A DNA stretch of 63,663 nt, counting the filler. It is 13 parts of 13 records of this genome, joined end to end, with 100 filler letters (N's around TTAATTAATTAA, not from the genome) between each part and the next. Parts side by side here need not be neighbours in the genome. Positions count along the whole stretch, not along the records: positions 20,250 to 23,360 come from SRR15195285_3814; 12 more parts are not named here. One strand, written 5' to 3'. A model generated the notes under the pieces. That model saw only the letters and a list, made by a program, of their open reading frames with translations. It searched no databases and had not been told where the DNA came from. Positions 6,942-56,329 of this stretch are shown piece after piece; within the stretch, counting starts at the first letter, position 1; each line of letters begins with the position of its first letter. The position numbers and the translations under genes were made by a program.

Positions 6942-6969
6942 CGAGAGAGAGAGAGAGAGAGAGAGAGAG
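6942..6969. repeat. (GA)n microsatellite at contig end; (AGC)n at about 6202-6221
   Basis: Read directly from the sequence. Confidence 0.9.
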
Positions 6970-17671: not shown

Positions 17672-20149
17672 TTAGGCTTCATCATCACGCTGGAGTTCTA
17701 GAGCCATTGCGCGGTCTCGGATGCTTTGTTCGTCGAGTTGGTGCAGCCTCAGCGCAAGTTCAAAATCGCTCTCGACATGAACAGTCCGGATTCCTTCGCC
17801 ATAGGTGCGTGTAGGACGGCTTGGCCCTGTAGTCTGCCGTGGCGCTGCCACTGTTAGCTCCCTCATTCCTGTACCTGCCTGTACGGGAGGCGTCTGCCGA
17901 TGTCTTCTGCGATGGGACGGCCGTAATTGTGGCTGTCTTGCAAGACCATTTGGCCTACCGTGTAAAGCCAGCGATGATCTCTTTGCTAGCTCAGCTCTGC
18001 TGTCTCTCTGAGAACCTATCGACCTGCTCGGCACAAAGGTGGCCCCTGGTGGAACTATTACTCGCCGCACTTTACGTGTTGTGCCTGTCGCCGCTGTGTT
18101 TGTTTGCTCCATCTCCGCGAAAGTCACGCGCCACCCATGGCGGCCAGGAAGGTTTGCCTGAGCGCGGTTCGCCAAGAACTCGGCCTCGAGGATTGTGTTC
18201 AACGACGGGTCAAACCTACGCCATGAGCCATCATCGTGCTGCCACTCCCAACTGCCAGGCTGTGCGCCACCGCCAACACCCCGGGAACTTTCTGGCGATA
18301 CCGATCTGGCGATCGCAGCAGCGTCTAGGTTCCGTGGCACGTTGCGTGGAACACGCGTCGCAACTGGGGGTTGCATGCTAACCTGCCTCGTGCTGTGCTG
18401 CCAATGTGCAACTGCTGAAAAATGACCAGACTGCAATGCCGACCCGTGTGGCGTAGCTGATGGTCTAGAACAAGGCCCAAGCGGCGTGGATGGTCCGTCG
18501 TCCAGCGATGTGCCGTACCCGGCTTCTGTAGAACTTTCTGAATCTGAAGCGATCTCTCTCCATTTCCAGTCTTCCAGCTTCTCCAGAACACTTGGGCGGC
18601 CACTCTCTCTAGAAGTGGGCCTGCATGGTGGCGGCGTTGCTGGTCTTGCAATTTGCCGCGGCGGAGTTCTTCTACCGTGACTGACTGACGGTGCAGTTTG
18701 CCGCAGCAGAGTTGGAGCGCGACCGGGCGAGTGCGCTTGCTCGAGTCGCAGCGGCAGCCTTGGCCGCGGCCGCGGTGCATCAGCTCTAGGACGCGATGAT
18801 ATAGTTCCACCAATCCTCGGTGGATTACGAGAGGCCGACGCGCAACCAGAGCCACCATCGATACGAAAAACATGGTTGATATCATGGTCCTGCTGAGCTT
18901 CGCAGTCAAGGCACAGCCGGAACTCCACGCAGTGGACGCACTCAAACATCAGTCCTTCTATGGCACTGTTGCATTGTGAACACGTCTTAGGGTCACCTGG
19001 TCCCCACATGTGCGGATGCCCTTGTATCTTCTCTGGCTCGGACAGAGCCGGGGGAAGCCTAACGTTTCCGGCATCTACAATGTATGGTTTCGCGTGGATC
19101 AACGGCATCGAGCACGGTTTCGTACACCTATCAGTGCACAGATTGAAGTCGAACTGACGGCCACAACCATCCTGTCGGTTGCCACCGCCCTTGTCCTGCG
19201 CATCCCGACCACAGGTAATTGTTGAACAACCCTCCAACTTTTGGATAACTTTATCACAGTGTGGACATCGACGACAGTGCGCTGCTTTGTACTGCTCGTC
19301 TTGCAGGTGTTCACGGTGACGCTGTTGCAGTCGAGTGATTTCAGCCTGTCTGTCCTGGAAGCGCTGCTGCGACATCTGAAACTTTTGTTTCTCAATTCCG
19401 ACCTTTTTAAGGTACTGGTCGCGCTGTCTCTGACACCACTCATGCCATGTCGATGTGAGTGAGTCAAGATCCTCGCACTTGCATCCGTGATGGTATGGGT
19501 AGCTTGCACACAGCACACAACTGTTCGTGTGACAGACATCACATTGCATCCGCGGGTCCGCATCATTAGGATCGTTTAGAATACACCCTTTGCACTGATC
19601 TGCACCATGTACGACTGGGCAGCGGTGCTTGTCGTCGTAGAAGCGTTCCTGTGTGACTTCATGGAACTTATCGACCAGAGACATCTTCTTCGTTGGCTCC
19701 TCGCTGTCAAGGATGGCATAGATGTCTCGCTCGTTCAAAATGTAGCCACAGCCAGGATTTGCACACGTAGGACGTTCTCGACCTCTGAGGGCAGTTTCCA
19801 GTCCGTGCAGGCAACCTTCACGGCTAATCCAAACGCACCCTGCATGCTGCCAGCATAGCTCCAATGGAAAGTCCACCCGTGTGATTGGACACTCCGCTAC
19901 CTCACAAACAAGGCTAGCAGCTTCAGATATGGCAAGCCACCGGTGCAAGGTAGGTTCTGCGTTGGTCAAATAGCATTCGTCCGCCCTGGCATCGACATCG
20001 TGTACTGTTGCTTCGCTGGGTTGTCCCGACCCATGTAGTTTGAACCACAAGCGTGCTCCAACTTTCAGACCACTTGCTGCGGCCAGGTTCTCACGCAGTT
20101 GTACACTTGCTTCCTCACGAGCAAAGGCAAGCTTTTCCACAAGCCCACG
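17672..20149 (-). CDS. RBR-type E3 ubiquitin ligase with ZZ finger, WWE domain and C-terminal ubiquitin-binding-like helices; 5'-partial
   Basis: RING1/IBR cysteine clusters. RING2 CPHCDKVIQKLEGCSTITC. ZZ CSQC..FECVHCVEFRLCLDC..DH. WWE WEWQHDDGSWRRFD..TRKVRR. C-terminal SDFELALRL and DRAMALELQ. Confidence 0.85.
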   Translation of the reverse strand, partial: RGLVEKLAFAREEASVQLRENLAAASGLKVGARLWFKLHGSGQPSEATVHDVDARADECYLTNAEPTLHRWLAISEAASLVCEVAECPITRVDFPLELCWQHAGCVWISREGCLHGLETALRGRERPTCANPGCGYILNERDIYAILDSEEPTKKMSLVDKFHEVTQERFYDDKHRCPVVHGADQCKGCILNDPNDADPRMQCDVCHTNSCVLCASYPYHHGCKCEDLDSLTSTWHEWCQRQRDQYLKKVGIEKQKFQMSQQRFQDRQAEITRLQQRHREHLQDEQYKAAHCRRCPHCDKVIQKLEGCSTITCGRDAQDKGGGNRQDGCGRQFDFNLCTDRCTKPCSMPLIHAKPYIVDAGNVRLPPALSEPEKIQGHPHMWGPGDPKTCSQCNSAIEGLMFECVHCVEFRLCLDCEAQQDHDINHVFRIDGGSGCASASRNPPRIGGTISSRPRADAPRPRPRLPLRLEQAHSPGRAPTLLRQTAPSVSHGRRTPPRQIARPATPPPCRPTSRESGRPSVLEKLEDWKWREIASDSESSTEAGYGTSLDDGPSTPLGPCSRPSATPHGSALQSGHFSAVAHWQHSTRQVSMQPPVATRVPRNVPRNLDAAAIARSVSPESSRGVGGGAQPGSWEWQHDDGSWRRFDPSLNTILEAEFLANRAQANLPGRHGWRVTFAEMEQTNTAATGTTRKVRRVIVPPGATFVPSRSIGSQRDSRAELAKRSSLALHGRPNGLARQPQLRPSHRRRHRQTPPVQAGTGMRELTVAAPRQTTGPSRPTRTYGEGIRTVHVESDFELALRLHQLDEQSIRDRAMALELQRDDEA

Positions 20150-20249
20150 NNNNNNNNNNNNNNNNNNNNNNNNNNNNNNNNNNNNNNNNNNNNTTAATTA
20201 ATTAANNNNNNNNNNNNNNNNNNNNNNNNNNNNNNNNNNNNNNNNNNNN

Positions 20250-23200
20250 AGCCGAGTGTCGGGCGGCCATTGAGGCGGACACGAAAACTGTCCCTGAGCT
20301 GGAGCCGGAGCCCGAGCGGGAACCTTGGCCGGATCTTTGGCGTTACCAGGACTCAGGTGACGCCCATGCCGCTGCGACGCGCATCCAGTCTGTGGCTCGA
20401 GGTGCAAGATCGCGCCATCAGCTGATCATGGACATGTTTGATGACCAGCGGTATAACAAGTTGGAGGTGATGATATCTGAAGCTGACATACAGCGTGCAG
20501 TCGCTGTGCTCGGCGAGATTGGAATTTTTGCGGGTATGTCGGAAGCTGAACGCCACGATATTGCCAAAGCTCTTACGCTGGTGCGCTTTAGTGATGGCGA
20601 CGAGATTATCCAGCTGGGGGAGCTCGGTGATGCAATGTATTTCATCAGCGAGGGAGCCGTCCAGCAGATGCAGGACGGTGAGCGTATCATGACCGCTGAG
20701 AGAGGTGATGAAGGGTTCTTCGCAGAGATGGATCTGCTTGGTGGTGGGCGTCACGTGCAAGCCACAGTCGCTGTGGGTGAGACTGAGTGTTTCCGACTGT
20801 CTAAGGATGCCTTAGAGTCAATCGAGCTCGGGGACGATCATGGCTTCAAGGAGAGTCTGGAGCGTCATGCCTCTGCAGTTGTGATTACTCAGCACAGCAC
20901 CCATCACGATCGACGTCATCTCATCAGGGACAAGCTCACCCACCTGGAGCAAGAGCACGCTCAGAGCAACGGGGCTGGTGGGGCTGGAACCGTGGGGCAT
21001 GATGAAGAGGTCGATGCGGCCGCACTCCAGGTGCAACAGATGATGCTAGAGGCCCTGGGCATGACGGGCGAGGCGCTTTCAGAGGACGATAGTGATGGTG
21101 ACGATGAACATGAGCAGACAATGGTGTCTCCACGTGCGTCTGATGCTCTGCAGGTAGAGCTGCGCCATAGCTTCTTGGCATGGGTGCCGCTCTTCAAAGC
21201 GATGACCCCGGCTGAGCTAGATGAGATCGCAGATGCGATGGCGGAGGAAGAGTACGAGTACGAAGACATTGTCGAACAAGGCGACGAAGGTGACTCGCTC
21301 TTCGTGATCCGCAAAGGCACGGCCGTGGTTGAGAAGGATGGCGTAGATGTCGCGACGTACGGTCCGGGCGATTTCTTTGGCGAGCGCGCACTCATTAGTG
21401 GCGAGCCGCGTGGCGCCACTGTGCGCGCAGAGGGTGTTGTCCAGTGCATGCGACTCGGCCGGGAGCCGTTCAAGGAGCTGATGGGCGAGTGTGCTCATGT
21501 GGCGGCGCTGTTCGAGGAGAGCAAGCGCAGCTACGCTGTGGTTCAGATTCAGGCGATCGCGCGCGGATGGCTCGTTCGAGAACGGATTATGGCAGCGCAG
21601 TTTGACTCGGACGATGATAACGACGCGGGCCAGGTCGAGTTGGAAGCGGCTGGACTTGATGGCGACGCGTCAGCACAACCGAGCTCACAAACACGCGGTC
21701 GATGGGGACGAGTCCGCTTCCTGGAAAAAGTACCGCTCATGCAAGCGCTGACAAACACGGAGCTGCGCAAGGTGGCAGATGCGATGGCGACGGAGGAGTA
21801 CGAAGAGGAGGAAATAGTGGTGCAAGGGGAAGACGGCGACTCGCTCTACATCATCGAGAAGGGTCAGGCGGTGGTGGAGAAGGACGGTGTCGTCGTCGCC
21901 ACGTACGGCCCGGGCGAATATTTTGGCGAGATCTCACTCATGACAGGCGAGCCGCGCGGAGCCACAGTGCGCGCGACAGGCGCAGTCGCGTCTCTGCGGC
22001 TTGGCCAGAGTGCGTTCAAGGATTTGATGGGGCAGTGTGACCATGTGGCTGCGCTGTTCAATGAGCAGCAGAAGAAATACCGCCGAATCCAGTCGCGGTG
22101 GAGCAACATCAATGGGCAGACTGGTATATCAGCAAAGCCTACAATGGCGCCACACGCATATCGCGGTCGCCACCGGAGGGCTGTCGCCTCAGATGGGGAG
22201 ACGACAGCAGCAGGCAGTAGCATTCCCGAGAGCGTTCCTCCGGCTGGGCTGTCGATAGATTCAGCGGCGTCAAGCACCGGCTCACTTGATCACGTCCACA
22301 CTGGCGCTGGGAGTTCAGAACAGGAGCAGGAGCAGGAGCAAGGGCTCGAACTGTTCTCCGATGACGTTGTGTACTATCACGACGGCGGCATCGCAAAGAA
22401 GAAGGAGATTGCCGTGCTGTGGGACCATGTCGATGCTGACGGTAGCGGCAGCCTCGATCGTAGTGAGGTTCACACTGTTCTGGTGGAACTTGATCTCGAC
22501 GCCGAGGAGCAGGATGTCGAAGAGGCCATCGCTCAGCTTGACAGCGATGGCAATGGCGAGATCAGCTTCGAGGAGTTTGCAAGCTGGTATCTTACCTATG
22601 CGGACGAGAGTGCATCGCAGGCGACGACGACTGTAGCCAGCTTGACGCGACTAGCGGAAAGCGGCGATATTGACGACGAGACATATATGTGGACAGAGGC
22701 GCTCGGCGACGATTGGATGACCTACGCTGAAGCTAAGGCCCTACTGGGCGACCGCACATTTGACGGGCTCTCGACAAGGCCGAAGGGTGTCGGAGACGAC
22801 GATCAGCACAGCACCACTGAAGAAGCTGTATCAGAAGAAGGTGAACCTGCAGCAAGTGCACCAGCAACATCCATGGACGCTGCCAGCTCGTCTCGACTTG
22901 CCAGCACGGTAGAGCACACGGCGATTGTGCATTACCAAGATGGGGGTGCTTCGAGGATACAGGAGATCCAGGCCCTCTGGAACGAGGTGGATGTTGACCA
23001 AAGTGGCAACCTCGACCGAGATGAGGTACAGGCCGTGCTGACTAAACTTGATATTGCAGATACCGAGGTGGGTGTCGACGCAGCGATCGACACGTTGGAC
23101 AAGAACAAGGACGGCGAGATTGACTTCAACGAGTTTGTGAGCTGGTACCTCCAGTGGGAGAGTGACAGCGGCGGCACCGAACAACACACTGCACAGACCA

Positions 23201-23360
23201 CAGTCGGCGGTCTGCTGTGCGGTGGGCTGGTTGAGTCGGGCACCGTGTTGGACGAGACATACATTTGGGTGGACGGCCTCGGCGACGACTGGATGACGTA
23301 CGCTGACGCCAAGGAGCTGCTGCCGTCGGAAGCCGAGTGTCGGGCGGCCATTGAGGCGGA
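20250..23360. repeat. 30-nt terminal direct repeat AGCCGAGTGTCGGGCGGCCATTGAGGCGGA (20250-20279 and 23331-23360)
   Basis: Exact match between the contig's first and last 30 nt. Offset is 3081 nt. Confidence 0.95.
20251..23360 (+). CDS. Repeat unit of a cNMP/Ca2+ sensor protein: IQ-cNMP-cNMP-IQ-cNMP-(GYF_2 with EF pair)x2; open at both ends
   Basis: cNMP motifs GDAMYFI, GDSLFVI..FFGERAL..PRGATV and YFGEISL..PRGATV. IQ motifs IQSVARG and IQAIARG. EF loops DADGSGSLDRSE, DSDGNGEISFEE, DVDQSGNLDRDE, DKNKDGEIDFNE. Confidence 0.9.
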
Positions 23361-23687
23361 NNNNNNNNNNNNNNNNNNNNNNNNNNNNNNNNNNNNNNNN
23401 NNNNTTAATTAATTAANNNNNNNNNNNNNNNNNNNNNNNNNNNNNNNNNNNNNNNNNNNNGCCCTCTAACGGCCCCAACAGGGGCAGATCTAATCAGTTC
23501 TAACCCAGGTAGGGGCAGTTTGAGGGGTGGGGATCTAAAGGGTAGAAGTAGGAAAGGGATGGATCTGGCTGCGCCGGAACCACCCTTTTCCCTACTACTG
23601 ACGACGTGTACGCACGAACTCGTGCCTTAATAATTATAGCCGTTCAATTGGACACACCAGCTTAATGTAGCACTATCTCAACAAATG

Positions 23688-26600
23688 TCACATATCTTGG
23701 CAACATGCCACGCACAAGTCAAAATCACACCGGCGACATTCACGGCTTTGCTCGCCAGCACCAATTTTCGATCGGCAAACATCGCACGATATCGATGAGT
23801 GCTTTTTCACAGTCACCAGTCTCAGCCCATGGCCTCCAGGGCAGTTGATTGCGCCCTCGCCACTGTCGGCTGAAGACTCATCGCTCTCGTTGTCGCTGTC
23901 ATCGTATCCCTCTTCGCTGCAATGATCCTCTCCAAGCTCGTCAAGAAAGTCTGTGGGAATCGGTACCTCGTCGTCGCGCATTTGTGCAACCATGTCGAGC
24001 ACCGAGACGTCGTACGCGTTGCTGAGGGATGGGTCTGCACCACGCGCCAGCAACCGCTTGGCTGCATGGAAACTCTTTGAGCGCACTGCGATGTGAAGCG
24101 GCGTATCGCCCAGCACGCCCATGTTTAGTATCGGATGTACATCCAACACTCTTTCGACGCCGTCCATTCGGCGGTCAAAAACTTTGACGCCATGCGTGAC
24201 GCCACTTACATGGTCCCATTCATCCTTGCACACACTGAGCGTTTCCGTGTCGCCTTCCAAGCCGGAGATGATCCGTCGACTTGCTGCAAATGATGAGCTG
24301 TCTAAGCACACACGCAAGAGCGCAATAACTCTTTCACCGTCCAACTGCTTGTCGAGATCGTGCGCACATTCACTCGCCAACAAACGCTCGAGCATCGACA
24401 GGCCAACATCACAATTCATCGTGTTGCACGCAGACAGGAACAGAGCATGATTAGCGCCCGCGGAAAAGCAAGCGTTATCTGTGATCAGGAGTGACAAGCC
24501 TGGATGGAAGTGATTCACGCGCTCAACCAAAGCTGGAATCGACGGATCGGGCTCAAACTCAAACTGTAGATTGTCTGGTTTCCAACGTTGCAATCCGCAG
24601 ATGCAGTTGTTGCGTAAGTCCAATCTTGTTAGCTTGCTCGCTGAGGATGGTGTTATGGTCTCAGACGACACTGGCTCGGGATCAATTGGATGCGCATCAC
24701 GTGCGTCAATCACAAGTTTCGCCAAAGCAACGCCAGCTTCTGTGGCAGTACCAGTCTTGGAGAGTAGCTTTTGCAATCTTTCGGGGGTCAACTCCATCAA
24801 ATCTTCCCCATCTGTGCAGTTGTCTTGAAACGCAGCTCGCACGGAAGCCACGGAATTGGGAGGGAGCAGAATTGAGTCGACCCACTCCAAAATTTGCTGT
24901 GCAGTCCAATCTGTCATGCTTTGCGCAACTTCAGGCTCTGGCGTTGTGTTTGGCTCTTGAAAGTCACAGAGTGGTACAATTGACGGGTTGACAAATACCG
25001 TGTGACCGCCCCAATTGACGTCACAACATCCAGTGACGAGCGTTAGGTGTGTCACGCTACTGATGTCAACCTCGCATTGTTCTAATGAATACACGTCGTC
25101 GATTTTTTTCGACGTCCACAGCACATTCCCATCGCCAATAACTTCAAACATGAACCCACGAAGTACGTCCCTGACATCACCATTGACTGCCACGGACATT
25201 CGCAGCAATGAGTCGCGAAATCTTGAAGTGTCAAATGTAACAGACCCAGGTGCATGCAGTGAAATACTGCGATTGTACTGGGCCACATCGAGACGTTTGA
25301 TTTTGACCTTCTGATTTTCATAGCCTAGGTCTAGGTTGCGGCCAAGTGCTCCAAAAGTTGTGTCCACTGCCAACTCTGCTTCGTCAGCTAAATGCACAGG
25401 ACCCTTCGGTTGCACAGCTGGTGCGAAACCGTTCAAAAGGGCCTTAGCACCCGTTGGCCCAATGTCACAGTCCTGTAGAGAGAGCTCAGACAGCAGCTCA
25501 CAACACGGTAGGCCAGCAGCAATCACCACAGCTCCACGATTACCTAGAGGATTGAAGTCTAGATTAATGCTGGTCAAATGAGACCAGGTCCGTGCAACTA
25601 CACATGCGGTGGCAATCATGGTGTGATCATCGTCCAGTCTGCGTAGCTGCAGCGTCTGCGTTGTTGGTCTGATATATTGAAACCCATTGAACGTGAAGTT
25701 CGGCGCATCATGATTTTCAAGCAAATGAGCAAGAGAACCAAATTCCAGCAGATTTCCTCTCAAATCAAGACTTTCCAGGAGCTTGCACTGTTTTGCAGCC
25801 ATGCAAATCGCAACTGCAACACGCTGCGACATACGTGATTCACGCAGATCCACGAACTCTACATGAGCAGCGCTGGGCAGTGCGCGAGCAAAGTTCAAGC
25901 CTACAATGTCCGAGAATTCACCGTCGTCAGACTCTTTCATGAACTCTGTCCGTTTTAGATCGATCACGCGCAGCGTTTCGCAGAAATACCGGTGGCAACA
26001 CAGTGACGTAGCAAAAACAGCCGCAGAGATGGACGCTTCCCGCGCGTGTAGCTCAGCACGTTCGGTTTCTACCAAGTGTTTGACTTGCATGGTCGTCGAG
26101 TTAATATCTCCCCGTCCAGAAAATGTGACTGATGCCAACGAACAACTAAACTCGATGCAGTGTACGAGCGCATGGGCTTCGACCGTGGTGAGCATAAACC
26201 CAGCCAAATTGACGTCCACGATCTTATCTTGAAGCAATGCTACGACAGGTATCACACCGAGTTTACCGGGGGCCTCATGAAAGATAACGCTTGCTGTCAC
26301 TGCATCCATGCAGACCTGGTAGTCTTTACTAAACTTGTTCATTGCTCTCGGGTTGATTTCTTTTGTGGAAGCATCAGTGCTATCCATCAGAGTGAAAAGA
26401 GCTCGAGCACCGAAGAAATCGCAAAACTTGGCCAGTTGAGCGAAAGTCTCTTCATGCAACGCGCCATCTTTCATAGGAAGTCGGGACACAAGGGCAGTGA
26501 GGCCTGCATCAAGTTTGGAAGCATCTGAACTGTATCCCAGCCGCCGGAAGGCACGGACGAAAAATACCACTCCAGTGCGACCAACAATGTCGAGACCTAC

Positions 26601-29600
26601 AGAATCTACAATGCACTCAGCCTGACTGCGGCGATCTTTATCGCGTAGCAACTGTTGGTATGCTTGTTCCTTTCGAAACCAGACTGTATCTACTACATGT
26701 GAGCTGTCAAAGTCATCCATCTGTGCAACCATTTCAACAGTTCTCGCACAACCAACGTGCAAGCCATACCGATTGGTAGCTTGGTCACGCAGTGACGTAT
26801 GAGCAAATCGAAGAATGTGGTTGTCATCCCGCGACACGTACATTTCAAGGTGCGAGTACACTTCAGCGGGGAGCTGCTTCGACAAGAACCTGTGAAGCGT
26901 TTCGTCCACTCCATCATGGCATAGAAGCAAAGGCAGAAAGAATACTTCGGCATTATTATGTCCACATGTTGACTCCAGCGCACCGAGCAGACCAGCTGAG
27001 CCCACATCAACGTCATCCAAGCACTCGGCAATCAAATCAGCCACACGACCAGCTGCCGCGTCTCCCGGTACTTGATCCACAGCTTTTGATAATTTGTCTA
27101 GCGTTTTATCTGCTCTTGCAAAGTCGCGAGAATGCACAGAGTAGAAGAACTCGTCCCAGCAGCCTCTACGACTTCTTATCGTAGAGAAGTAATCAGCCAT
27201 CTCTACGTATAGCAGCTTTGCTCGAGCAGAATTTCGCAGCCGGTATCGTGCCTTACATTCGGCTGCCAGCTGATCGTGGAAGAACTGCAGCAGGCCGAAG
27301 CCGCCACCAGCCGTCAAAAACACACCAAGTGCTTCACGGATCCGGCTGAAGCTGCTGATCTGATCCTGTTTCCACGCGTGAGCCTCGCAAAGATCGTGCA
27401 TCGCTGCTGAAGATAGTCCACTCCTAGACAGAACAATTGCGGACAGACAAAATTCCACTAGCTCTGCACCATGGTCTTGCTCCAGTGTCGACAAGAGGTG
27501 ACGGAACAGGGTTCGAGCTGTGCCCGGGAGTGTGTGCGTCATGAAAGTCGTTAGGTTTTCGTAGATGCCGTATCGTCGAAGCTGTTCGCACGCAGCCACC
27601 AAAAATAAAGGGGATGAAGCCTGTTCCATGTCCAATAGTATGCCCATCTGATCACCTAAGAGAGCGTCCTCTGGGTCTTCACACAGCTCTTTGTGGTATA
27701 CACCAAGGCATTTCTTGACAAGTTGTCTACAATGCTCATAGTCTAGAGGTGTGACTTCCAACTCTTGACGATTCAGTCGTGAGAGCCTTCTGCGTAAACT
27801 TTGAAGGCAATTGCGCTCATACTCTAGCATACTAACCACAACTTTCACTCCTCGTGGCAGCCGTTTTGGTAACCAACGCATACTCCATGCATCTCCCACC
27901 CTTCGCAGCTGGTTGACTGCATCAATCACAATGATAACAGGTTTGCCACTGTGCTCGAAAACTTGTCTGGCCAAGATTGCCCAGAGCGACGACAATTCAG
28001 CAGTAGTCAACGCCTCACTGAAGTGTTCACCGGCCGGAAGCAAAAATGCCAGCTCTGAGCAGAGCCGGAGAAGCATGAACCGCAGATTGACTGATGTAGG
28101 TGAGCTGCCCACAACGTGATAAATTACTTGCTGATGTTTGTCAACAAGCTGACGAATGAACGTTGCCATCAGTGCACTCTTTCCACAGCCAGGCTTGCCA
28201 TGAACAGCCAGCAACCCGCGTGGATTCTGTAGGCTGCAGAACGACTGCATCTTGTCGAGCAAGGAGTTTCGACCAAAGAGCATCCGGCTCCTATCTTCAA
28301 CTGCGAGTAAATGAGGCAGTTGTTCAGCTTTTCGGCCATCTGGCTGCGACAGGGGTTTGTATTCGCGTTGTATCATTTCCTTCAGCTTGTTCAGTACCAG
28401 GCTCTCGAATCGCTTTTTGCACGCATCCTGTTTCATGGTGCGACCATAACCTACCCTCGCGCCAGCTATTTGCTTGTCATAACCGGTTGCTCCATCTCCA
28501 GCGTAGTCTGCACAAATGACGTGGGAAGAAGCTCGCAACCCGTTGTCAATTTCGCCCTTATCGCGGATGATAGCAAGCACTGCGTCGTCGTTCTTGGCAA
28601 CCGTGTACAAGTGGCGTTGGCTGCTGAAAGCTGCCTCACTGATGGGCGATACGTGCTCACGCTCAAAGATCCAGCGCCACTCAGGGTCGACGTGTTTCTC
28701 AAATGCCGAGTCTCGGAAGAGACTGAGACAATGCGCAGGACCCGGAAAATCTGGTGGGTACTGCAGGCAGCCATGCAGAACTTCTATAGACGTAATAGGC
28801 AGCTGTAGGCCTTGGTCCTGTAGATGATTGATCCATTTGACACTTCCAGGCTCATCAAACCTGTCTGCTGAGTCTAGCTCGTCTTGAATTGATCCGATTC
28901 TAGAAGTCCGAAAACAGATCATCCAGGGTTTGCCCTCTCCGTTTGGTCGGCAATGGTTAATTAGGTTGACACAAGTCGCTTGAATTTTAACATCTTGCCC
29001 TCCTATACCCCATCGAAGATCTTCTACTTCAAACTTGATCCAATATGACTCACGCGCCAGCCACTCGTTGAGTTCCGGGATTACTTTCTTGATCACAATG
29101 TCTCGTTCCGAATGAGTATCAGTGAACGTGCTGCTCAAAAAAAGTCTAATGATCGTCCACCTCCCCGGCTCACGTATCGTTTTTGGGTCTGCAAGACTTC
29201 CACCAGCCTCAACATGCTGTGTGCCCATGGAGTCCCAGAGACGAGACACCCACCCAATCTTCCTGTCAACTATTGCAGACGCAATCGTGTGATCTGCTGC
29301 GTCTGGTTTCGTCAGTTTGTACTGAAACCACTGAGACTCGCGATGCGAGGATAAAGCAACACCCGTCCAACTTGATTCTTCCTCACCCAGTCCTGTAAGC
29401 TGGTTGCTGCTCACGGACGATGCTGATGACAAAGATGTCTGGAGCCCGTGACTCATTGCATTCCCATGGTCCTGATCTTCTGGTACTTTTATTGTGTGGA
29501 TCACTGGGGACGGTGCGCGAAGCTTTGCAATGATGGCTTGACAGTCGGCCAGCTGTTGCTGTACTGCAGCACATTCCTGGCATTCTTCTCCAAAGTCTTT

Positions 29601-31385
29601 CCTTTCAATTGGCGGTGTTGATGATGTCTTGTCCTGCGTTGCACTAGCCAACGCAACGTGGTGCTGCTTCAGCTGCCGTTCTTGGGAGACCCATGAGCCT
29701 CTGTTGATAGCGCGCAAGTCGTTCATACATCGTGCAAATGCCTCTTCATGTTTTGCAAGTTCGCGTGTATCCACCGGATCTACGCTGCTGAGTTGAAACC
29801 CAAGAGCTTTCGGAGGATACTCGCCACCGCACCACAGAGCCGTAATTGGCTTGCCTTTGTTATTGGCGTGATCAAATTCGCGTTTTGTCCACAAGCTGCC
29901 GAGCTTTTCGTCCGTCGTTGCATACGTGGGAGAGATAAGCGCGACAAAAAGCTTGCAGCCGTCGATGGCGGCGTTCAGCTCAGCAGTCCAGTCTCCACCC
30001 CCCTGCAGTTCGCTCTCGCCCACATATGCCACGACTCCTTCGTCTGCGAACTTCCGACGCAGCCACTGGACAAATGTCGCTGTCTCGGTGATTCGATAAG
30101 ACAAAAACACTTCTGCAACGCCAGATACTTGCTTTTCCATCAGGAAGAAGTTCAACCGCTCAACAAGCTCAGCCAACCAATCGTCCCTGCTGCGAGGGAT
30201 CCACCCTTCCCACCCACAACTCTCGCGTGCGTCGATGAACTGAGTGGTCGAGAGGACAATTGAAACGCCGCCACGCGGCGGATAACTGTCTCCAGCCAAA
30301 AATAGTGGGACAACGCACGGTGGGCTGCGAGTGCCTCTGCCCTTGCCTGCGACCGCGAAGCTGAATTGTTTGCTAGTGCTGCTACCCTGCCGTCCATACG
30401 CTGTGGCTGCATCTCCTGTTGAAACAACTGGTACTAAAATCTTGCACTTGCCAGACGTCTCAGATCCAAGCTCGCAATATGGGAGAGGAAGACCATGCCG
30501 GACGAGGTCAAAGGCAAGATCCCGAACAAACGCTGACGCCACCTGCTCGTAGCTGATGCATACACCGTCGAGCGTGTCTGTGAGCTGATGCCACTCAGGT
30601 TCCTTTTCAACCAGCTCCCAGTAGAAGCGAAAGTACTCTCGATCGTTGGTCTTGCAAGTAGCTCTCATGCCATCGACGATCGACGTCACCGTGAGCTCGA
30701 GTAGTATCCACTCCCGTGCTCGTGCTGGCTCCTTCAGCATTGCTTTTTGGCACGCTTCCACTACGTCGCCGTGAGCCTCTGCCTTCAGCGCTTCTTTGGC
30801 GGCCTGGAGATGCGGTATTGTGGAGATGATCCCATCAAGCACACTCAGAGCTTCGGCGTGGCCTCGATCCTCGGCAATCTGCCTCGCAGTACGCCCGTTG
30901 TTGTCACGCCTATCTCCACCACAGCCGGCTCGAACAAGCTCGATGATGCAGCTGGTTGCGCCGTGGTGGCATGCGACGTGCAACGCCGTGAAGCCGGATG
31001 GGTCGCAAGAGTCCACAGATGCGCCATGCTTCAGCAGCAACTGCAGTGCACGCGCATCAGTCCGCGTGGCTGCTGCATGAATCGGGCGGACGAGCGCTGC
31101 TTCAACGTCAGCACAGCCATCCGCACTAACCGTCTCGAGGCGAGCGACCATTCCTCCGACGTCACCACTCCAACTAGCCCGCAGCAGGGGATAGTCCACG
31201 TCGCTCTTCACTCGCGCGCCGACGCTCTTGCGAGCCACTCTCGCAGCTATCCCTTCATCTTCCGTCCCACGCCCTGGCATAACTTGCATGCGTGCCAGAT
31301 GCACACAGTGTAAACGCAAATCAATCAATGTACAGTGGAGCCGTAGCCTCCTGTCCCTGCCCCGCGCCCACCTTCCCACACTCAA
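23688..31385 (-). CDS. NLR/STAND-like giant protein: Ank-TIR-DUF4062-NACHT-WHx2-LRR[NPCBM,SAM]-Ank-Zn finger (true start probably a Met near 31290)
   Basis: Ank GFTALHVAC. TIR VFLSYR..LISPTY..WTKREF. DUF4062 IRLFLSSTFTDTHSERD..DLRWGI. P-loop GKPGCGKS. Walker B IVIDAVNQ. LRR LSELSLQDCDIGPTGAKAL. C-terminal CDVC..CRRCDFDLC. Confidence 0.88.
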   Translation of the reverse strand: MSVGRWARGRDRRLRLHCTLIDLRLHCVHLARMQVMPGRGTEDEGIAARVARKSVGARVKSDVDYPLLRASWSGDVGGMVARLETVSADGCADVEAALVRPIHAAATRTDARALQLLLKHGASVDSCDPSGFTALHVACHHGATSCIIELVRAGCGGDRRDNNGRTARQIAEDRGHAEALSVLDGIISTIPHLQAAKEALKAEAHGDVVEACQKAMLKEPARAREWILLELTVTSIVDGMRATCKTNDREYFRFYWELVEKEPEWHQLTDTLDGVCISYEQVASAFVRDLAFDLVRHGLPLPYCELGSETSGKCKILVPVVSTGDAATAYGRQGSSTSKQFSFAVAGKGRGTRSPPCVVPLFLAGDSYPPRGGVSIVLSTTQFIDARESCGWEGWIPRSRDDWLAELVERLNFFLMEKQVSGVAEVFLSYRITETATFVQWLRRKFADEGVVAYVGESELQGGGDWTAELNAAIDGCKLFVALISPTYATTDEKLGSLWTKREFDHANNKGKPITALWCGGEYPPKALGFQLSSVDPVDTRELAKHEEAFARCMNDLRAINRGSWVSQERQLKQHHVALASATQDKTSSTPPIERKDFGEECQECAAVQQQLADCQAIIAKLRAPSPVIHTIKVPEDQDHGNAMSHGLQTSLSSASSVSSNQLTGLGEEESSWTGVALSSHRESQWFQYKLTKPDAADHTIASAIVDRKIGWVSRLWDSMGTQHVEAGGSLADPKTIREPGRWTIIRLFLSSTFTDTHSERDIVIKKVIPELNEWLARESYWIKFEVEDLRWGIGGQDVKIQATCVNLINHCRPNGEGKPWMICFRTSRIGSIQDELDSADRFDEPGSVKWINHLQDQGLQLPITSIEVLHGCLQYPPDFPGPAHCLSLFRDSAFEKHVDPEWRWIFEREHVSPISEAAFSSQRHLYTVAKNDDAVLAIIRDKGEIDNGLRASSHVICADYAGDGATGYDKQIAGARVGYGRTMKQDACKKRFESLVLNKLKEMIQREYKPLSQPDGRKAEQLPHLLAVEDRSRMLFGRNSLLDKMQSFCSLQNPRGLLAVHGKPGCGKSALMATFIRQLVDKHQQVIYHVVGSSPTSVNLRFMLLRLCSELAFLLPAGEHFSEALTTAELSSLWAILARQVFEHSGKPVIIVIDAVNQLRRVGDAWSMRWLPKRLPRGVKVVVSMLEYERNCLQSLRRRLSRLNRQELEVTPLDYEHCRQLVKKCLGVYHKELCEDPEDALLGDQMGILLDMEQASSPLFLVAACEQLRRYGIYENLTTFMTHTLPGTARTLFRHLLSTLEQDHGAELVEFCLSAIVLSRSGLSSAAMHDLCEAHAWKQDQISSFSRIREALGVFLTAGGGFGLLQFFHDQLAAECKARYRLRNSARAKLLYVEMADYFSTIRSRRGCWDEFFYSVHSRDFARADKTLDKLSKAVDQVPGDAAAGRVADLIAECLDDVDVGSAGLLGALESTCGHNNAEVFFLPLLLCHDGVDETLHRFLSKQLPAEVYSHLEMYVSRDDNHILRFAHTSLRDQATNRYGLHVGCARTVEMVAQMDDFDSSHVVDTVWFRKEQAYQQLLRDKDRRSQAECIVDSVGLDIVGRTGVVFFVRAFRRLGYSSDASKLDAGLTALVSRLPMKDGALHEETFAQLAKFCDFFGARALFTLMDSTDASTKEINPRAMNKFSKDYQVCMDAVTASVIFHEAPGKLGVIPVVALLQDKIVDVNLAGFMLTTVEAHALVHCIEFSCSLASVTFSGRGDINSTTMQVKHLVETERAELHAREASISAAVFATSLCCHRYFCETLRVIDLKRTEFMKESDDGEFSDIVGLNFARALPSAAHVEFVDLRESRMSQRVAVAICMAAKQCKLLESLDLRGNLLEFGSLAHLLENHDAPNFTFNGFQYIRPTTQTLQLRRLDDDHTMIATACVVARTWSHLTSINLDFNPLGNRGAVVIAAGLPCCELLSELSLQDCDIGPTGAKALLNGFAPAVQPKGPVHLADEAELAVDTTFGALGRNLDLGYENQKVKIKRLDVAQYNRSISLHAPGSVTFDTSRFRDSLLRMSVAVNGDVRDVLRGFMFEVIGDGNVLWTSKKIDDVYSLEQCEVDISSVTHLTLVTGCCDVNWGGHTVFVNPSIVPLCDFQEPNTTPEPEVAQSMTDWTAQQILEWVDSILLPPNSVASVRAAFQDNCTDGEDLMELTPERLQKLLSKTGTATEAGVALAKLVIDARDAHPIDPEPVSSETITPSSASKLTRLDLRNNCICGLQRWKPDNLQFEFEPDPSIPALVERVNHFHPGLSLLITDNACFSAGANHALFLSACNTMNCDVGLSMLERLLASECAHDLDKQLDGERVIALLRVCLDSSSFAASRRIISGLEGDTETLSVCKDEWDHVSGVTHGVKVFDRRMDGVERVLDVHPILNMGVLGDTPLHIAVRSKSFHAAKRLLARGADPSLSNAYDVSVLDMVAQMRDDEVPIPTDFLDELGEDHCSEEGYDDSDNESDESSADSGEGAINCPGGHGLRLVTVKKHSSISCDVCRSKIGAGEQSRECRRCDFDLCVACCQDM

Positions 31386-31733
31386 CTGTGCCCGCTGCGA
31401 TGCGCCGGCCTTGACCTATGATAAAGCGCTAGTGGCTAACGCAGACCCGGCGGAGTCGGCGGCGCAACGTTGAGGGGTCGGACCGTCTCCCCGCTTTAAC
31501 ACGTCCCCCCCGCACACCGACACGCACACGAAGTGCGTGCTCAGGACGACCGACGTCGACGCCAATCGCCGCGGCGCACCCTGAGTCAACGTCTGTCACA
31601 AGGACTCGTACAATCATATTGTACCGAATTCNNNNNNNNNNNNNNNNNNNNNNNNNNNNNNNNNNNNNNNNNNNNTTAATTAATTAANNNNNNNNNNNNN
31701 NNNNNNNNNNNNNNNNNNNNNNNNNNNNNNNGG

Positions 31734-36182: not shown

Positions 36183-38854
36183 GCGCCTCTCGCAAGTTGT
36201 CCGGCTTTGCACCCGCCGTTCCGATATCAACATACCCGTAGGTCCGCAGCAGATCCTGTATTACGAATAGCCCATACAAGCAGAACATACAGTAGCCGAG
36301 CGTCTTCGTCATTTTCCAGCCGCTGCAATGGATGCTTGTGATAACCACGAATATCATCATCAACAGGAGGAGGAGCGAGAAGAAGAGCGTTGGTGCCTCT
36401 ACTCCTACGTACCCCGGGGTGACGTCGTTGACAAGTGCATAGATGAGCCACGGCAACGGCAGCCCGACGAGAACATCGAAAATGTTGGACCCGATTGAGG
36501 ATGACACAGCCATGTCACCATGGCCTTGTCTCGCAACGACTACACTCGTGAGCAGGTCGGGCACGCTGGTGCCAGCTGCCAAAAATGTTAGTCCCATGAC
36601 TGCATCCGGAATCCCAGCAACGCAACCGATCTTCGTTGCCCAGTCTACCATGAAGGCACTGAAAATGCCCACCCAAGCAATCGCCAGCACGAACGAGGCC
36701 GGGTACCAATCTTCCCAGTTGATACCACCGGGGGGATGAAATAGTTGGTCCGGGCCCACGCCTTCAGGAACCACACACCTGACTGGAGTACCACGCAGAT
36801 GTTTTGGGCGCTCCACTTGTGCATCGACTGTATCGCCACCCTTTTTGTCGCTGGGGCAGCGCACTTGTGCGGGCAGTCGCCGCACATCAGGGATCGTGCA
36901 CATCATGGCCAAGTTTATCGGGGCCATACACACCCAGAGGACTGTGGCCAAAGGATATTTGCCTGGCTGGGCCGGGGGGCTGATGGAAAACGGCGGGTTG
37001 TCAACCACTTCTGCTTGTAGCTCAACCCACGCAGTGAAGTATTCAGAGCTGTTGTACCAGTCGAGGAACTCGTTCAGCGAGATTCTCCCGTCATGATTTC
37101 CTGAGTCGTCAATCGCTGCCATTTCCTGCCACAAATCATCAACGTCCGAGTCCGAGGGAACTTTTCCCTTTCCGGATTTAAGAAGCTGTGTGACCTCATT
37201 TTTGTCCAGGTACCCACTGAGATCAGCGTCAATTTCGTTGAACTTTTCAATCACCTGTTCTCGGATTCGCTCCGCACTTTCGCCGTACCATTCCCTAAAT
37301 TCAATCAGTGAAATCTTGTCCGGCAAATGGTTGTCCCAGTTCTTCACCTTTTTTTTAACCTCTATGAATACATCCTCGACTTCAGCAAGAGTTATTTCCC
37401 TTGAGTCACCAGCTTGCTGCCGTAGCTGAGAGATTACCTCTTTGATTTCCTCAGCGTCGAGGTAGCCGTTCGAGTCTTTGTCAACCTCCTGAAATGTTTG
37501 GTCCACGTTGCCCGGGACGTGCGAGACTAAATGCAACTCTGCTTGCTCGGCAACGGTACGATCTTCCATCAACATTGACCACAAACCTGCACGGTACGCC
37601 GAGGTGTGGTACAGGGAGTCATTGCCCGTGATATCGGCATTTCGGTGGAGAGTATGAGCTTTGACCTCTGTCTCCATCGCATCGGACTCCCGCGTCGGGT
37701 TGGCTGTCTCTTCTACCGTCGGTACTTTTTTCCTCATTGCTATCGCGTCCAGTTTCTCGGCTAGTGTTCGGTTGAACGCCATGATGAGAATATATCCGAA
37801 GTACCTGTTGCGTTGCGTCGGTACAGTACTGGGCTAAGAAGCTGGCTGCAACGCAGACAAAGGGAAAACGATGCGGGGCAACGCACATTAAAAAAAGTAT
37901 GGCTGCTTCCCAAGTATGTATGGCAGCGCAATCTTGTGGCTTGGCTCGGTCTTCATCGTCCTTCCAATAGCAAAAGTTACCAAACTTCACCCATGCGTCA
38001 CTTTCGCTTGTAGGTTTCATCTCGACTCTACCGAAGAAGAGTGCTAGCGCCAACAGGGATAAGCAATAGTACGAGCAATCTCGAGCCAGCGGCCACCACG
38101 TCAGGTGAAGATCTTCCTGCGGCGCGACACGCAAGAACGCTCGGATCACGCGCAAGGTGATCAGCAGGGTGATGCACACTCAAGCAAAAGGGGCTCACCT
38201 CCGACGCGACTGCGCAAGTGCCGATGACGAACAGCACGTTGAAAACGGCAGATCCTACAATGGTCCCGAAACCTACTGCGCTTTGCTCAAATGTTCCGAT
38301 GAAGGAGGTAAATAGCTCAGGTGCAGAGCCGCCTGCAGCCATCAGTGTCGCGCCGGCGATGTCTGGATCAATTTCCCACCGTTTTACGATGACCTCAAGG
38401 GCTGTGAGCAAGAACAACAACACGCCGCCAGCATTTCAGGACTGGGCGCAGTAGCTCAGAAGTACGTGAGTACCTTACCTGGGACGAAGAACTCATCGCA
38501 CACGACGGACAGCGACAGAAACATCATCAGCACGCCAAACACGTACAGGCCAATCACAGGGCCCTTCAGTGTGACCCAGGAGATCATGTTCTCGCCGTCG
38601 CAGTCTGCCGCTCTGTAGTCAATCTCACACTGCTCGAGACCGGACTCTTCCCGAATCGCTTGCAAGCACGCTGATACCGTCTCATTTGTCGTGTTTGTCC
38701 CGCCAGTTTGCAGCTGCCGATACGCTGGCTCGATAGCGGAAGCAGGGCTGCCCTCAGACGTCGTCACAGCTAATGCATCGCACGTGTGGTGTAGCTGGGG
38801 GAGGAGGAATAGTACGAAGACCCACGCGCGGGGTCCGCATTCGCTGGGCCTCAT
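36183..38854 (-). CDS. K+-dependent Na+/Ca2+ exchanger (NCKX/SLC24-like) with EF-hands in the cytosolic loop; 3'-partial
   Basis: Alpha-1 [17 protein letters not shown] and [10 protein letters not shown]. Alpha-2 [13 protein letters not shown] and [12 protein letters not shown]. Introns 38478-38402, 38198-38117 and about 37886-37805. Confidence 0.93.
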
Positions 38855-43832: not shown

Positions 43833-43903
43833 CCATGAGCCATGAGCCATGAGCCATGAGCCATGGTCCATGGTCCATGATCCATGATCCATGATCCATG
43901 ATC
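43833..43903. repeat. 7-mer minisatellite (CCATGAG)4(CCATGGT)2(CCATGAT)4
   Basis: Read directly. It terminates the contig and probably lies inside the AKR intron. Confidence 0.95.
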
Positions 43904-44098
43904 NNNNNNNNNNNNNNNNNNNNNNNNNNNNNNNNNNNNNNNNNNNNTTAATTAATTAANNNNNNNNNNNNNNNNNNNNNNNNNNNNNNNNNNNNNNNNN
44001 NNNCCCCCCCCCCCCCCCCCCCCCCCCCGCGCGAGAGTTTGCGTACGTGTTGTATCGCCTAACATCGTGGATACGTGGCCACTGAAGGAACGCCGCCT

Positions 44099-50051: not shown

Positions 50052-50862
50052 GCTCTAGAGATCAATAGTAGCATATATGCATCGCGGCGCACCCCGCGCG
50101 CCCCTGTGAGTCGCGGGGGCCGGGGACCACAGCGATACAGCTGTACTGGCCGACGTGATNNNNNNNNNNNNNNNNNNNNNNNNNNNNNNNNNNNNNNNNN
50201 NNNTTAATTAATTAANNNNNNNNNNNNNNNNNNNNNNNNNNNNNNNNNNNNNNNNNNNNCAGCAGCGGCGGCGGCGGCGGCGGCGGCGGGCAGCGGGTGG
50301 TTCATAGTATCATGTAGTCCAATAATACCTCAGCCAGCTCATCCCCTCCTCCCCCCCAACCACCACAGCCAGCAGCCCCTGCCTGCTCCACCCGGCAGCG
50401 CCCCCAGCGCCCTCCGCCCGCCGGTTGTAGGTTAGGGTGCCACCACGGCTGTATCTCCGATGGTGTATGCCGAAGTGCGTGCCCAGCCCAGCCGCTCCGT
50501 CAGCGCCACGCCGCGCGCGTACCGCTGTGTACAGTACACAGTGTATAATCTAATACACACTGTGATACACGTGCCCGGCACCGATGTACCCGCGTACAGT
50601 ATATTATACTGTGAATACGGTAGTCCCCAGTACCGAATTCGACGACGTACTGATCAGTATACCGGTGTACGCTTCATTCTCCAGTCCTGCATTGAATACA
50701 CCGCGGATACTGTACAGTCGGTTCCTGCCACCTGCCTGCAGGTGCCTCGAGCCTGGTTCGACTGGTACTCAGGTACTGTGGTACTCTGGTACTGAGGGTG
50801 GCTGCACCGCGCCTCAGGCTGTGGACTGGCGTTGGGGTGGATGCCTGCGTTGGCCAAGGCCG

Positions 50863-51894
50863 ATGGCGATGAGGCTGGCCTGGGAGCGCACTGAAGAGAA
50901 AGGGGGGGTGGGGCAGCGCGAAGCGGGGGCTCTGGTGTGGGGGCGTGCTGAAGAGCCCGCTGTGGGGGGGATGGAGGCGGCGGTGGCCTGGAGTGGCGAC
51001 GGCAGCGCTATGGAGGATGAGATGGGCCTACTGGTGGTGCGCAGCAGGGCGGAGCAGCGGTTGCTGAGCGGGTTCTACCGACTGCGGAAGAAGCGGATCG
51101 CGCGGAAGCAGGCGGAGTTCGGATCGGAGAGGCTCGCGTCGCTGCGGAAGGGCGAGATCGTCCAGGTGGTGCAGAGCTGCGTGCAGCCCGACGGTGCGGT
51201 GCGCGCGCGAGTGACTGACGTCTCCGGAGAGGACGCCGGGTGGGTGACCTTCGACGAGAACTGCATGGCGCCCGAGCCGGAGCCGATGCCAGAGTCCGAG
51301 CCCGAGCCCGAGCCCAAGGAGTTGCCACCGCCAACACGGCGGCGCGCCTCCTGCCCGGACGTCGCCGCGAACGCCACCCCCGCGCCGTTGCGGCCGCGCA
51401 CGAGGGGCGGCGAGGGCAGCGAGCCGTCGCGGGCGGAGCGGCCCGGCGAGAGCGCGAGCGCGACGTACGTGGACGTGACTTACGGAGAGCCGATCCGCTC
51501 TGAGGTGTCACTCAGCGAGCGCTTGCGGAAGAAACGGGAGCGGCGGCGAGGCGGTCGCGCAGCTGGGGGCACGAAGCAGACAAGATGGCAGGCGCGGCAG
51601 GCGCGCGAGCTTCAGATGCAGGAGGCGTACGTCGCCGGGAGTGGCAGCGGCGGCGGCGGAACGACGTTTGGCGGCACGCCGCTTGACAGCGAATGTGCTG
51701 TCTGCCTCGACCAGATGCGCGACCCCGTAATGCTCGCGTGTGGGCACAGATTCTGTCGCGCGTGCGCCACGCTCGTGAGGACGACTGATTCACGACAGCG
51801 TTGTCCAGTCTGCCGGCGCCCGTCAATGCGGCGATTTTTCCGCCACGCGTCCCCCCAGGCGAGCGCGGAGAGCACGGTCGAAGATAGTTGGTAG
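50863..51894 (+). CDS. C3HC4 RING finger protein with SH3b-like domain (start uncertain)
   Basis: CAVCLDQMRDPVMLACGHRFCRAC..CPVC. SERLASLRKGEIVQV..RARV..GWVT. EP repeat. Confidence 0.75.
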   Translation: MAMRLAWERTEEKGGVGQREAGALVWGRAEEPAVGGMEAAVAWSGDGSAMEDEMGLLVVRSRAEQRLLSGFYRLRKKRIARKQAEFGSERLASLRKGEIVQVVQSCVQPDGAVRARVTDVSGEDAGWVTFDENCMAPEPEPMPESEPEPEPKELPPPTRRRASCPDVAANATPAPLRPRTRGGEGSEPSRAERPGESASATYVDVTYGEPIRSEVSLSERLRKKRERRRGGRAAGGTKQTRWQARQARELQMQEAYVAGSGSGGGGTTFGGTPLDSECAVCLDQMRDPVMLACGHRFCRACATLVRTTDSRQRCPVCRRPSMRRFFRHASPQASAESTVEDSW

Positions 51895-56227: not shown

Positions 56228-56329
56228 NNNNNNNNNNNNNNNNNNNNNNNNNNNNNNNNNNNNNNNNNNNNTTAATTAATTAANNNNNNNNNNNNNNNNN
56301 NNNNNNNNNNNNNNNNNNNNNNNNNNNTG

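Follow-up and report, generated by a model that had tools for sequence, protein, structure and literature searches.

Do the identical ends of a contig that is open in one reading frame throughout mark a circular element, a giant protein whose repeating units were collapsed during assembly, or a point at which the assembler came to a halt? The question is raised by positions 20250–23360 of the window, by which we mean the whole 63,663-nt stretch of DNA that was analyzed. The original prediction had read the contig as the collapsed remnant of two or more near-identical tandem units. Our analysis indicates that the matching ends prove neither a circle nor a giant repeating protein, and that they most likely record an assembler stop at a repeated word.

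The contig and its terminal repeat

The window is made up of 13 contigs of 3.1–9.6 kb each, joined by artificial spacers of 100 nt (runs of N around TTAATTAATTAA). Positions 20250–23360 correspond to exactly one of these contigs, 3111 nt in length, which is bordered by artificial spacers at 20150–20249 and 23361–23460. The other contigs carry long intron-free open reading frames (ORFs) on both strands with intergenic DNA between them, and the eukaryotic domains that they encode include a TIR-NACHT-LRR-ankyrin combination, LETM1 (on the contig at 56328–60398), RING, WWE, and a Na/Ca exchanger with EF-hands. The source is a short-read genomic assembly of an intron-poor protist. Exact microsatellite or homopolymer runs of 21–30 nt occupy 4 of the 26 contig ends, and none of these runs exceeds 30 nt; elsewhere in the window, one contig end consists of exactly 30 nt of pure microsatellite and another of a 25-nt homopolymer.

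The 30-nt word shared by the two ends, here called X, is located at 20250–20279 (5′ copy) and 23331–23360 (3′ copy), both on the forward strand. The copies are identical and lie 3081 nt, or 1027 codons, apart, exactly as originally described. The 5′ copy is translated as AECRAAIEA, its last two bases opening the next codon, and is followed by the start of the unit, which reads CACGAAAACTG...; the 3′ copy is preceded by the end of the unit, which reads ...CTGCCGTCGGA. The peptides quoted in the original prediction for these junctions are correct. A scan of the whole window that allowed up to three mismatches returned these two matches only, against a chance expectation of 0.00, and two or more matches were obtained in none of 100 shuffled sequences. 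Terminal self-overlap is a feature of this contig alone among the 13, and a comparison of all 13 contigs detected no end-to-end overlap between different contigs. Because the next-longest exact direct repeats within the contig measure only 15, 14, and 13 nt, X is not a product of ordinary similarity between modules. An exact scan of the genome contig collection for the 30-mer produced no match, and the window holds no further contig that carries either X with its upstream sequence (A-X) or X with its continuation (X-C).

The ORF occupies 20251–23358 on the forward strand and comprises 1036 codons and runs off both ends of the contig, bounded by neither a start nor a stop codon, in agreement with the stop-free frame reported at the outset; the two remaining forward frames contain many stops. 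A codon-usage model built from 13 other ORFs in the window gave log-likelihood ratios of 0.20 for codons 1–40 and 0.27 for the whole ORF in the open frame, and negative values in the other two frames. Codon usage is therefore like that of the other contigs, which places the gene in the same genome, and as the coding signal is positive from codon 1, the gene must reach upstream of the contig (or wrap around). Scanning the contig for Rfam families and tRNAs gave no matches.

Domain organization of the encoded protein

All domains described below are encoded on the forward strand, and residues are numbered along the open frame. Pfam families and cut-offs were PF00027 (27.5 bits) for cNMP-binding domains, PF13499/PF00036 (30 bits) for EF-hands, PF00612 (20.3 bits) for IQ motifs, and PF14237 (25.8 bits) for GYF_2. 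Three separate matches to PF00027, all above the cut-off, define cNMP-binding domain 1 (20581–20820, residues 111–190, 53.5 bits), domain 2 (21265–21486, residues 339–412, 66.8 bits), and domain 3 (21805–22035, residues 519–595, 65.1 bits). Domains 2 and 3 are 70% identical at the nucleotide level over 300 nt, with a spacing of 546 nt, and domain 1 is the most divergent of the three. The phosphate-binding cassette of cNMP domains is marked by a Gly-Glu pair and an Arg. Inspection of the translation by eye against this consensus indicates that domains 2 and 3 keep both the Gly-Glu and the Arg; in domain 1, which appears degenerate, Ala replaces the cassette Gly and the stretch around the Arg is altered.

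Two EF-hand pairs, at 22402–22590 (residues 718–780) and 22960–23148 (residues 904–966), score 49.8 and 48.3 bits in Pfam, above the cut-off, and all four of their loops appear canonical when compared by eye with the consensus. The two IQ-like motifs fall below the cut-off of 20.3 bits: motif 1 (20365–20421, residues 39–57) scores 16.1 bits and motif 2 (21535–21582, residues 429–444) 16.8 bits. Motif 1 aligns with an IQ motif of the protist protein P0045, a protein in which Pfam scores IQ at 24.6 bits. GYF_2-like module 1 (22606–22719, residues 786–823) likewise scores below the cut-off, at 18.6–21.3 bits. GYF_2-like module 2 (23188–23325, approximate limits) is defined by internal repetition only, positions 23251–23322 being 79% identical at the nucleotide level to 22675–22746, and yields no Pfam match at E ≤ 0.1. 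Thus, of the domains listed in the original prediction, the three cNMP domains and the two EF-hand pairs stand above their cut-offs, both IQ motifs and one GYF_2 module lie below them, and the other GYF_2-like module is recognized from the internal repeat. The domain order predicted from these assignments is IQ, cNMP, cNMP, IQ, cNMP, and then two modules that each combine an EF-hand pair with a GYF_2-like stretch.

Relatives continue past the 3′ copy of X

A search for relatives among 5.8 billion proteins returned 25 matches, 23 of which are at most 38% identical to the window protein. The two close ones are P0003 (1224 aa, 83% identity), encoded on a single 4993-nt metagenome contig, and P0002 (1004 aa, 77% identity), encoded on a single 3215-nt metagenome contig. 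A third, P0028 (1934 aa), was found among longer proteins and is ∼44% identical to the window protein and 50% identical to P0003. All three come from JGI metagenome data. P0002 shares the domain order of the window protein from cNMP domain 2 onward, and P0003 and P0028 match from the linker ahead of the first EF-hand pair onward; P0028 differs in carrying a PH domain upstream and no cNMP domain there. The first 264 residues of the window protein are covered by none of the three.

At the unit end, all three relatives run straight through the position of the 3′ copy of X, and none wraps back to the IQ/cNMP start or takes up again the acidic-proline linker and the IQ motif that open the contig. 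Each carries a homologous EAEC..A motif at this position, after GYF_2-like module 2, with Glu1029, Cys1030, and Ala1033 invariant in all three; since the relatives keep the X-encoded motif there, the 3′ copy stands in its native context. Homology to the relatives then stops, to within a codon, where X does: its final two bases are GA, and the base that follows the 5′ copy gives Asp where the relatives have Glu. Beyond the motif, the relatives share an Ala-rich linker, a third GYF_2 module, and a coiled coil, and the sequence past the end of contig homology amounts to 820 residues in P0003 and 244 in P0002, which bears out the expectation that the full protein is much larger than the contig. 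Because this C-terminal part is different and non-repeating, endless repetition of one unit does not describe the protein, and the contig holds less than the whole gene. Judged by homology, it covers an internal portion of a larger, non-periodic protein that is predicted to have at least ∼1,850 aa plus a further N-terminal part. The contigs that encode P0002 and P0003 cross the point equivalent to X unbroken, so the genomes from which they derive have no fork there.

GYF_2 scores reach 42–45 bits in P0002, P0003, and P0028, and the best-scoring stretch in P0003 and P0028 is the third module, absent from the contig. The C-terminal part of P0003 gives a weak LBP/BPI/CETP-like match (PF01273, 27.0 bits against a cut-off of 28.8). 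A sequence search of the PDB with P0003 returned EF-hand matches only, and an Atlas search with its residues 560–1224 gave no usable match. The best matches of P0003 among solved structures all contain EF-hands, with calmodulin, troponin C, and centrin in the majority. RIB57 and RIB35, two ciliary microtubule inner proteins in which the match spans the EF-hand part, rank highest. A tblastn search of the window with P0002 and P0003 showed that the missing C-terminal part is absent from it; the match at 37054–37275 is an unrelated EF-hand.

The search for longer proteins also bears on the predicted repetition of the unit. Among the 10 longer proteins returned, which are at most 44% identical to the window protein, none has a two-unit arrangement; P0027 and P0028 were scanned with Pfam, and the other eight were judged from their listed Pfam domains.

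The N-terminal side of the protein is less well covered. Residues 1–70 have no relative in either protein database. The N-terminal 264–271 residues gave 4406 matches at E ≤ 0.001 in a representative library; among the 150 matches listed, all but P0049 are 24–35% identical, with the best stretch over the first cNMP domain. P0049 is a 164-aa fragment that covers residues 71–194 only (45% identity by BLASTP, 54% in the match list). The same N-terminal query yielded no scoring match among 4968 candidates in a search of shorter proteins. In the genome contig collection, a search with P0001 matched 14 stretches to a pattern, of which one passed tblastn; this one, in a gammaproteobacterial MAG, extends over 20 residues at 64% identity and does not represent a relative. 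P0045 and P0037 were considered as full-length templates and rejected, as both have paralogous cNMP arrays combined with other partners.

Origin of the matching ends

The reading that we favor, with a probability of roughly one half, is that the contig represents one unit with a 30-nt repeat on either side. The contig would then be the inside of one long, intron-free nuclear gene for a multi-sensor protein, a second in-frame copy of X would lie just upstream of the IQ/cNMP block, and beyond the 3′ copy the gene would, by homology, go on to encode a third GYF_2 module, then a coiled coil and a weakly LBP/BPI/CETP-like region. A de Bruijn assembler run at k = 31, in which the nodes are 30-mers, would halt at X as a 30-mer with more than one continuation, and the contig X-B-X would be a self-loop of the graph on that branching node. 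We infer the fork at X, the value of k, and the single copy from several observations. The three relatives go on across the 3′ copy into different sequence, two of them on unbroken contigs, and homology breaks off at the final base of X, as expected of an exit fork there. Other contigs of the assembly stop in repeats of at most 30 nt, one of exactly 30, which fits k−1 = 30 and upholds the de Bruijn signature proposed in the original prediction. The match in codon usage to the other contigs from codon 1 and the lack of a doubled unit among the 10 longer proteins point the same way. Against this reading, an exact in-frame repeat of 30 nt with unrelated flanks, 3 kb apart, needs an origin of its own, and a repeat length of exactly k−1 is a coincidence at the level of a few percent. 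The lack of any relative for residues 1–70, and of an A-X or X-C contig in the window, also counts against it. The comparison species, at 77–83% identity, are moreover different ones and silent on a recent duplication in the present genome.

It is on the origin of the repeat that a tandem array has its strength, as no single event would place X directly ahead of the IQ/cNMP start more simply than a tandem duplication of the whole 3081-nt segment. According to this explanation, the gene contains the 3081-nt cassette in at least two near-identical, in-frame copies that are followed by a non-repeated C-terminal part, and the assembler folded the copies into a loop. The whole-codon spacing and the stop-free read-through would follow, the right end of the contig would coincide with the fork at which the graph path naturally leaves an array, and the gene is in any case made of duplicated modules, as seen in the nucleotide identity of cNMP domains 2 and 3 (70%) and of the GYF_2-like stretches (79%). 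Tandem repeats do form cycles in assembly graphs, termed ‘whirls’ in the plasmidSPAdes preprint (10.1101/048942). Yet a doubled unit is seen in none of the three relatives that cover the unit end, and graph reasoning indicates that a plain duplication at k = 31 should give a 3081-nt contig without overlap, together with a 60-nt piece for the junction; to arrive at the 3111-nt self-loop that is observed, a pre-existing 30-nt flanking repeat or the loss of the 5′ entry edge is needed as well. The lack of a longer two-unit protein is a weaker objection, since short-read assemblies would collapse such a gene too. In a k = 31 graph, A-X-B-X-C and A-X-(B-X)n-C give the identical graph and contig, and the copy number is for this reason not countable from the sequence. 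On balance we consider an array doubtful, and the corresponding evolutionary scenario, a lineage-specific in-frame amplification of the cassette in a gene that carries one copy in sister lineages, is put forward only tentatively. If it were correct, the gene would encode a periodic giant protein with at least six cyclic-nucleotide and at least eight Ca2+ sites ahead of a lipid-binding-like tail, and would offer a clean example of a very recent in-frame cassette amplification that is still uncorrupted.

The two other explanations are less probable. The join between X and the unit start could be absent from the genome altogether, having arisen from chimeric reads, template switching during amplification, or contigs wrongly merged as they were extended. 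In favor of this, the assembly is fragmented, some of its contigs end in homopolymer or microsatellite runs (one a 25-nt homopolymer), and the 5′ context has no independent sequence support, there being no relative for residues 1–70; but the join is in frame, as only one random chimera in three would be, and the first 40 codons carry a normal coding signal. Assemblers also normally prune low-coverage chimeric k-mers, and we regard an artefactual join as quite unlikely. A real extrachromosomal circle of 3081 nt with an endless ORF would account for the k−1 terminal overlap and the stop-free frame. Such a circle is, in our estimation, highly improbable, and the original prediction was right to rank it low: the contig holds no replication or mobilization gene, RNA element, or tRNA, its sole gene being the cNMP/EF-hand ORF; its codon usage is that of the other nuclear contigs; the homologous gene is linear and continues past X in all three relatives; and an arbitrary cut of a circle would, by our estimate, land on the point at which homology stops only ∼0.5% of the time.

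Proposed function and significance

The domain families suggest how the protein might work. Its inputs would be cyclic nucleotides at the three cNMP-binding (CNB) domains, Ca2+ at the four EF-hand loops, and calmodulin at the IQ-like helices, and these inputs would act on the GYF_2-like modules and the C-terminal part by altering their conformation or their partners; in the relatives, the C-terminal part consists of a coiled coil and a lipid-binding-like region. The protein is, from its sequence, a candidate second-messenger-controlled scaffold or lipid-handling protein. Inputs from cyclic nucleotides, Ca2+, and probably calmodulin are joined in this gene to GYF_2-like modules and, in the relatives, to a possible lipid-binding tail. 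These searches located the gene in uncultured organisms only, its close relatives being metagenome proteins. It is a new gene built of known domain families, and the assembly signature that it displays is a known phenomenon.

The signature is of wider relevance in that matching contig ends are widely taken as a shortcut to ‘circular’ or ‘collapsed repeat’. Inside a gene, a single repeated word of length k−1 can yield matching ends as well, and relatives can reveal the linear continuation that is missing from the contig.

Comparison with known systems

The contig resembles the self-loop contigs or ‘whirls’ of de Bruijn graphs that the plasmidSPAdes preprint (10.1101/048942) describes in the setting of telling tandem repeats from plasmids. 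As in those described there, the contig opens and closes on one word of length k−1, and the graph alone would not exclude a circle. It departs from them in that the present loop lies inside a protein-coding gene and in that relatives show the linear continuation.

At the level of the protein, the closest parallels to the cNMP/IQ block are the multi-CNB protist proteins P0027, P0037, and P0045, which contain arrays of PF00027 domains as the window protein does. P0045 has cNMP domains and IQ motifs in matching order over 600 residues at 32% identity, and P0027, a protein of 3920 aa from Diplonema papillatum named ‘cAMP-dependent protein kinase regulatory subunit’, contains 25 cNMP stretches. Unlike the window protein, all three lack the EF-hand/GYF_2 modules and combine their arrays with PDZ domains or with cNMP domains only; they share paralogous cassettes with the window gene and are not its orthologues. 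The EF-hand pairs are comparable with those of the calmodulin/troponin-C type, the likeness residing in the two pairs of the window protein with their four canonical-looking loops. In contrast to calmodulin and troponin C, these pairs are embedded, together with a GYF_2-like stretch, in a larger repeated module of a protein that would exceed 1,800 aa.

Context of the sensor ORF in the window

The window consists of 13 independent contigs, linked through runs of N that flank TTAATTAATTAA. These artificial spacers lie at 20150-20249 and 23361-23460, on either side of the contig that bears the cNMP/EF-hand ORF (20251-23358, + strand), and at 10 other positions, and their core TTAATTAATTAA places stop codons in all six frames. 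As the contigs were joined artificially, neighbourhood across the spacers is therefore meaningless.

In one protist contig, ankyrin repeats occur together with a TIR domain, a NACHT/AAA ATPase, LRR and an NPCBM-like domain in a single ORF of 2575 codons (23691-31415, − strand); this architecture is that of an NLR-like immune receptor. Genes for a LETM1 ribosome-binding-domain protein (58497-60398, − strand; 213 bits) and a RING-finger protein (50566-51891, + strand) are ordinary eukaryotic genes that would serve well as single-copy references for read depth.

Elsewhere in the window, weak similarity to the cNMP/EF-hand protein is confined to the EF-hand of an ORF at 36184-37833 (− strand), in which EF-hands are fused with a Na/Ca-exchanger membrane domain and which is open at the contig end. 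A WWE-domain ORF of 825 codons (17675-20149, − strand) runs off the end of its contig, which in the window lies next to the contig with the cNMP/EF-hand ORF; within it, positions 19709-19729 match 21334-21354 in the cNMP region over 21 nt (90%) on the opposite coding strand, which looks like a chance match.

Contig ends and coding continuity

Several contigs end in repeats: (AG)n of 27 nt at 6969, a 7-nt repeat of exactly 30 nt at 43903, a 25-nt homopolymer at 44004, (GCC)n of 21 nt at 60398, and imperfect triplet repeats at 36082 and 50260. Ends so located are typical of breaks in short-read assembly graphs. No pure terminal run exceeds 30 nt, a length that hints at k = 31.

Among the relatives, P0002 and P0003 start with Met residues whose counterparts in the window ORF are internal (Met265 and Met632, respectively), P0002 diverges from P0003 over its final 10 residues, and cNMP domain 1 of the 164-residue fragment P0049 contains a gap-insertion of 26 columns. 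Introns or frameshifts in the relatives may lie behind these features. The window gene, in contrast, is uninterrupted.
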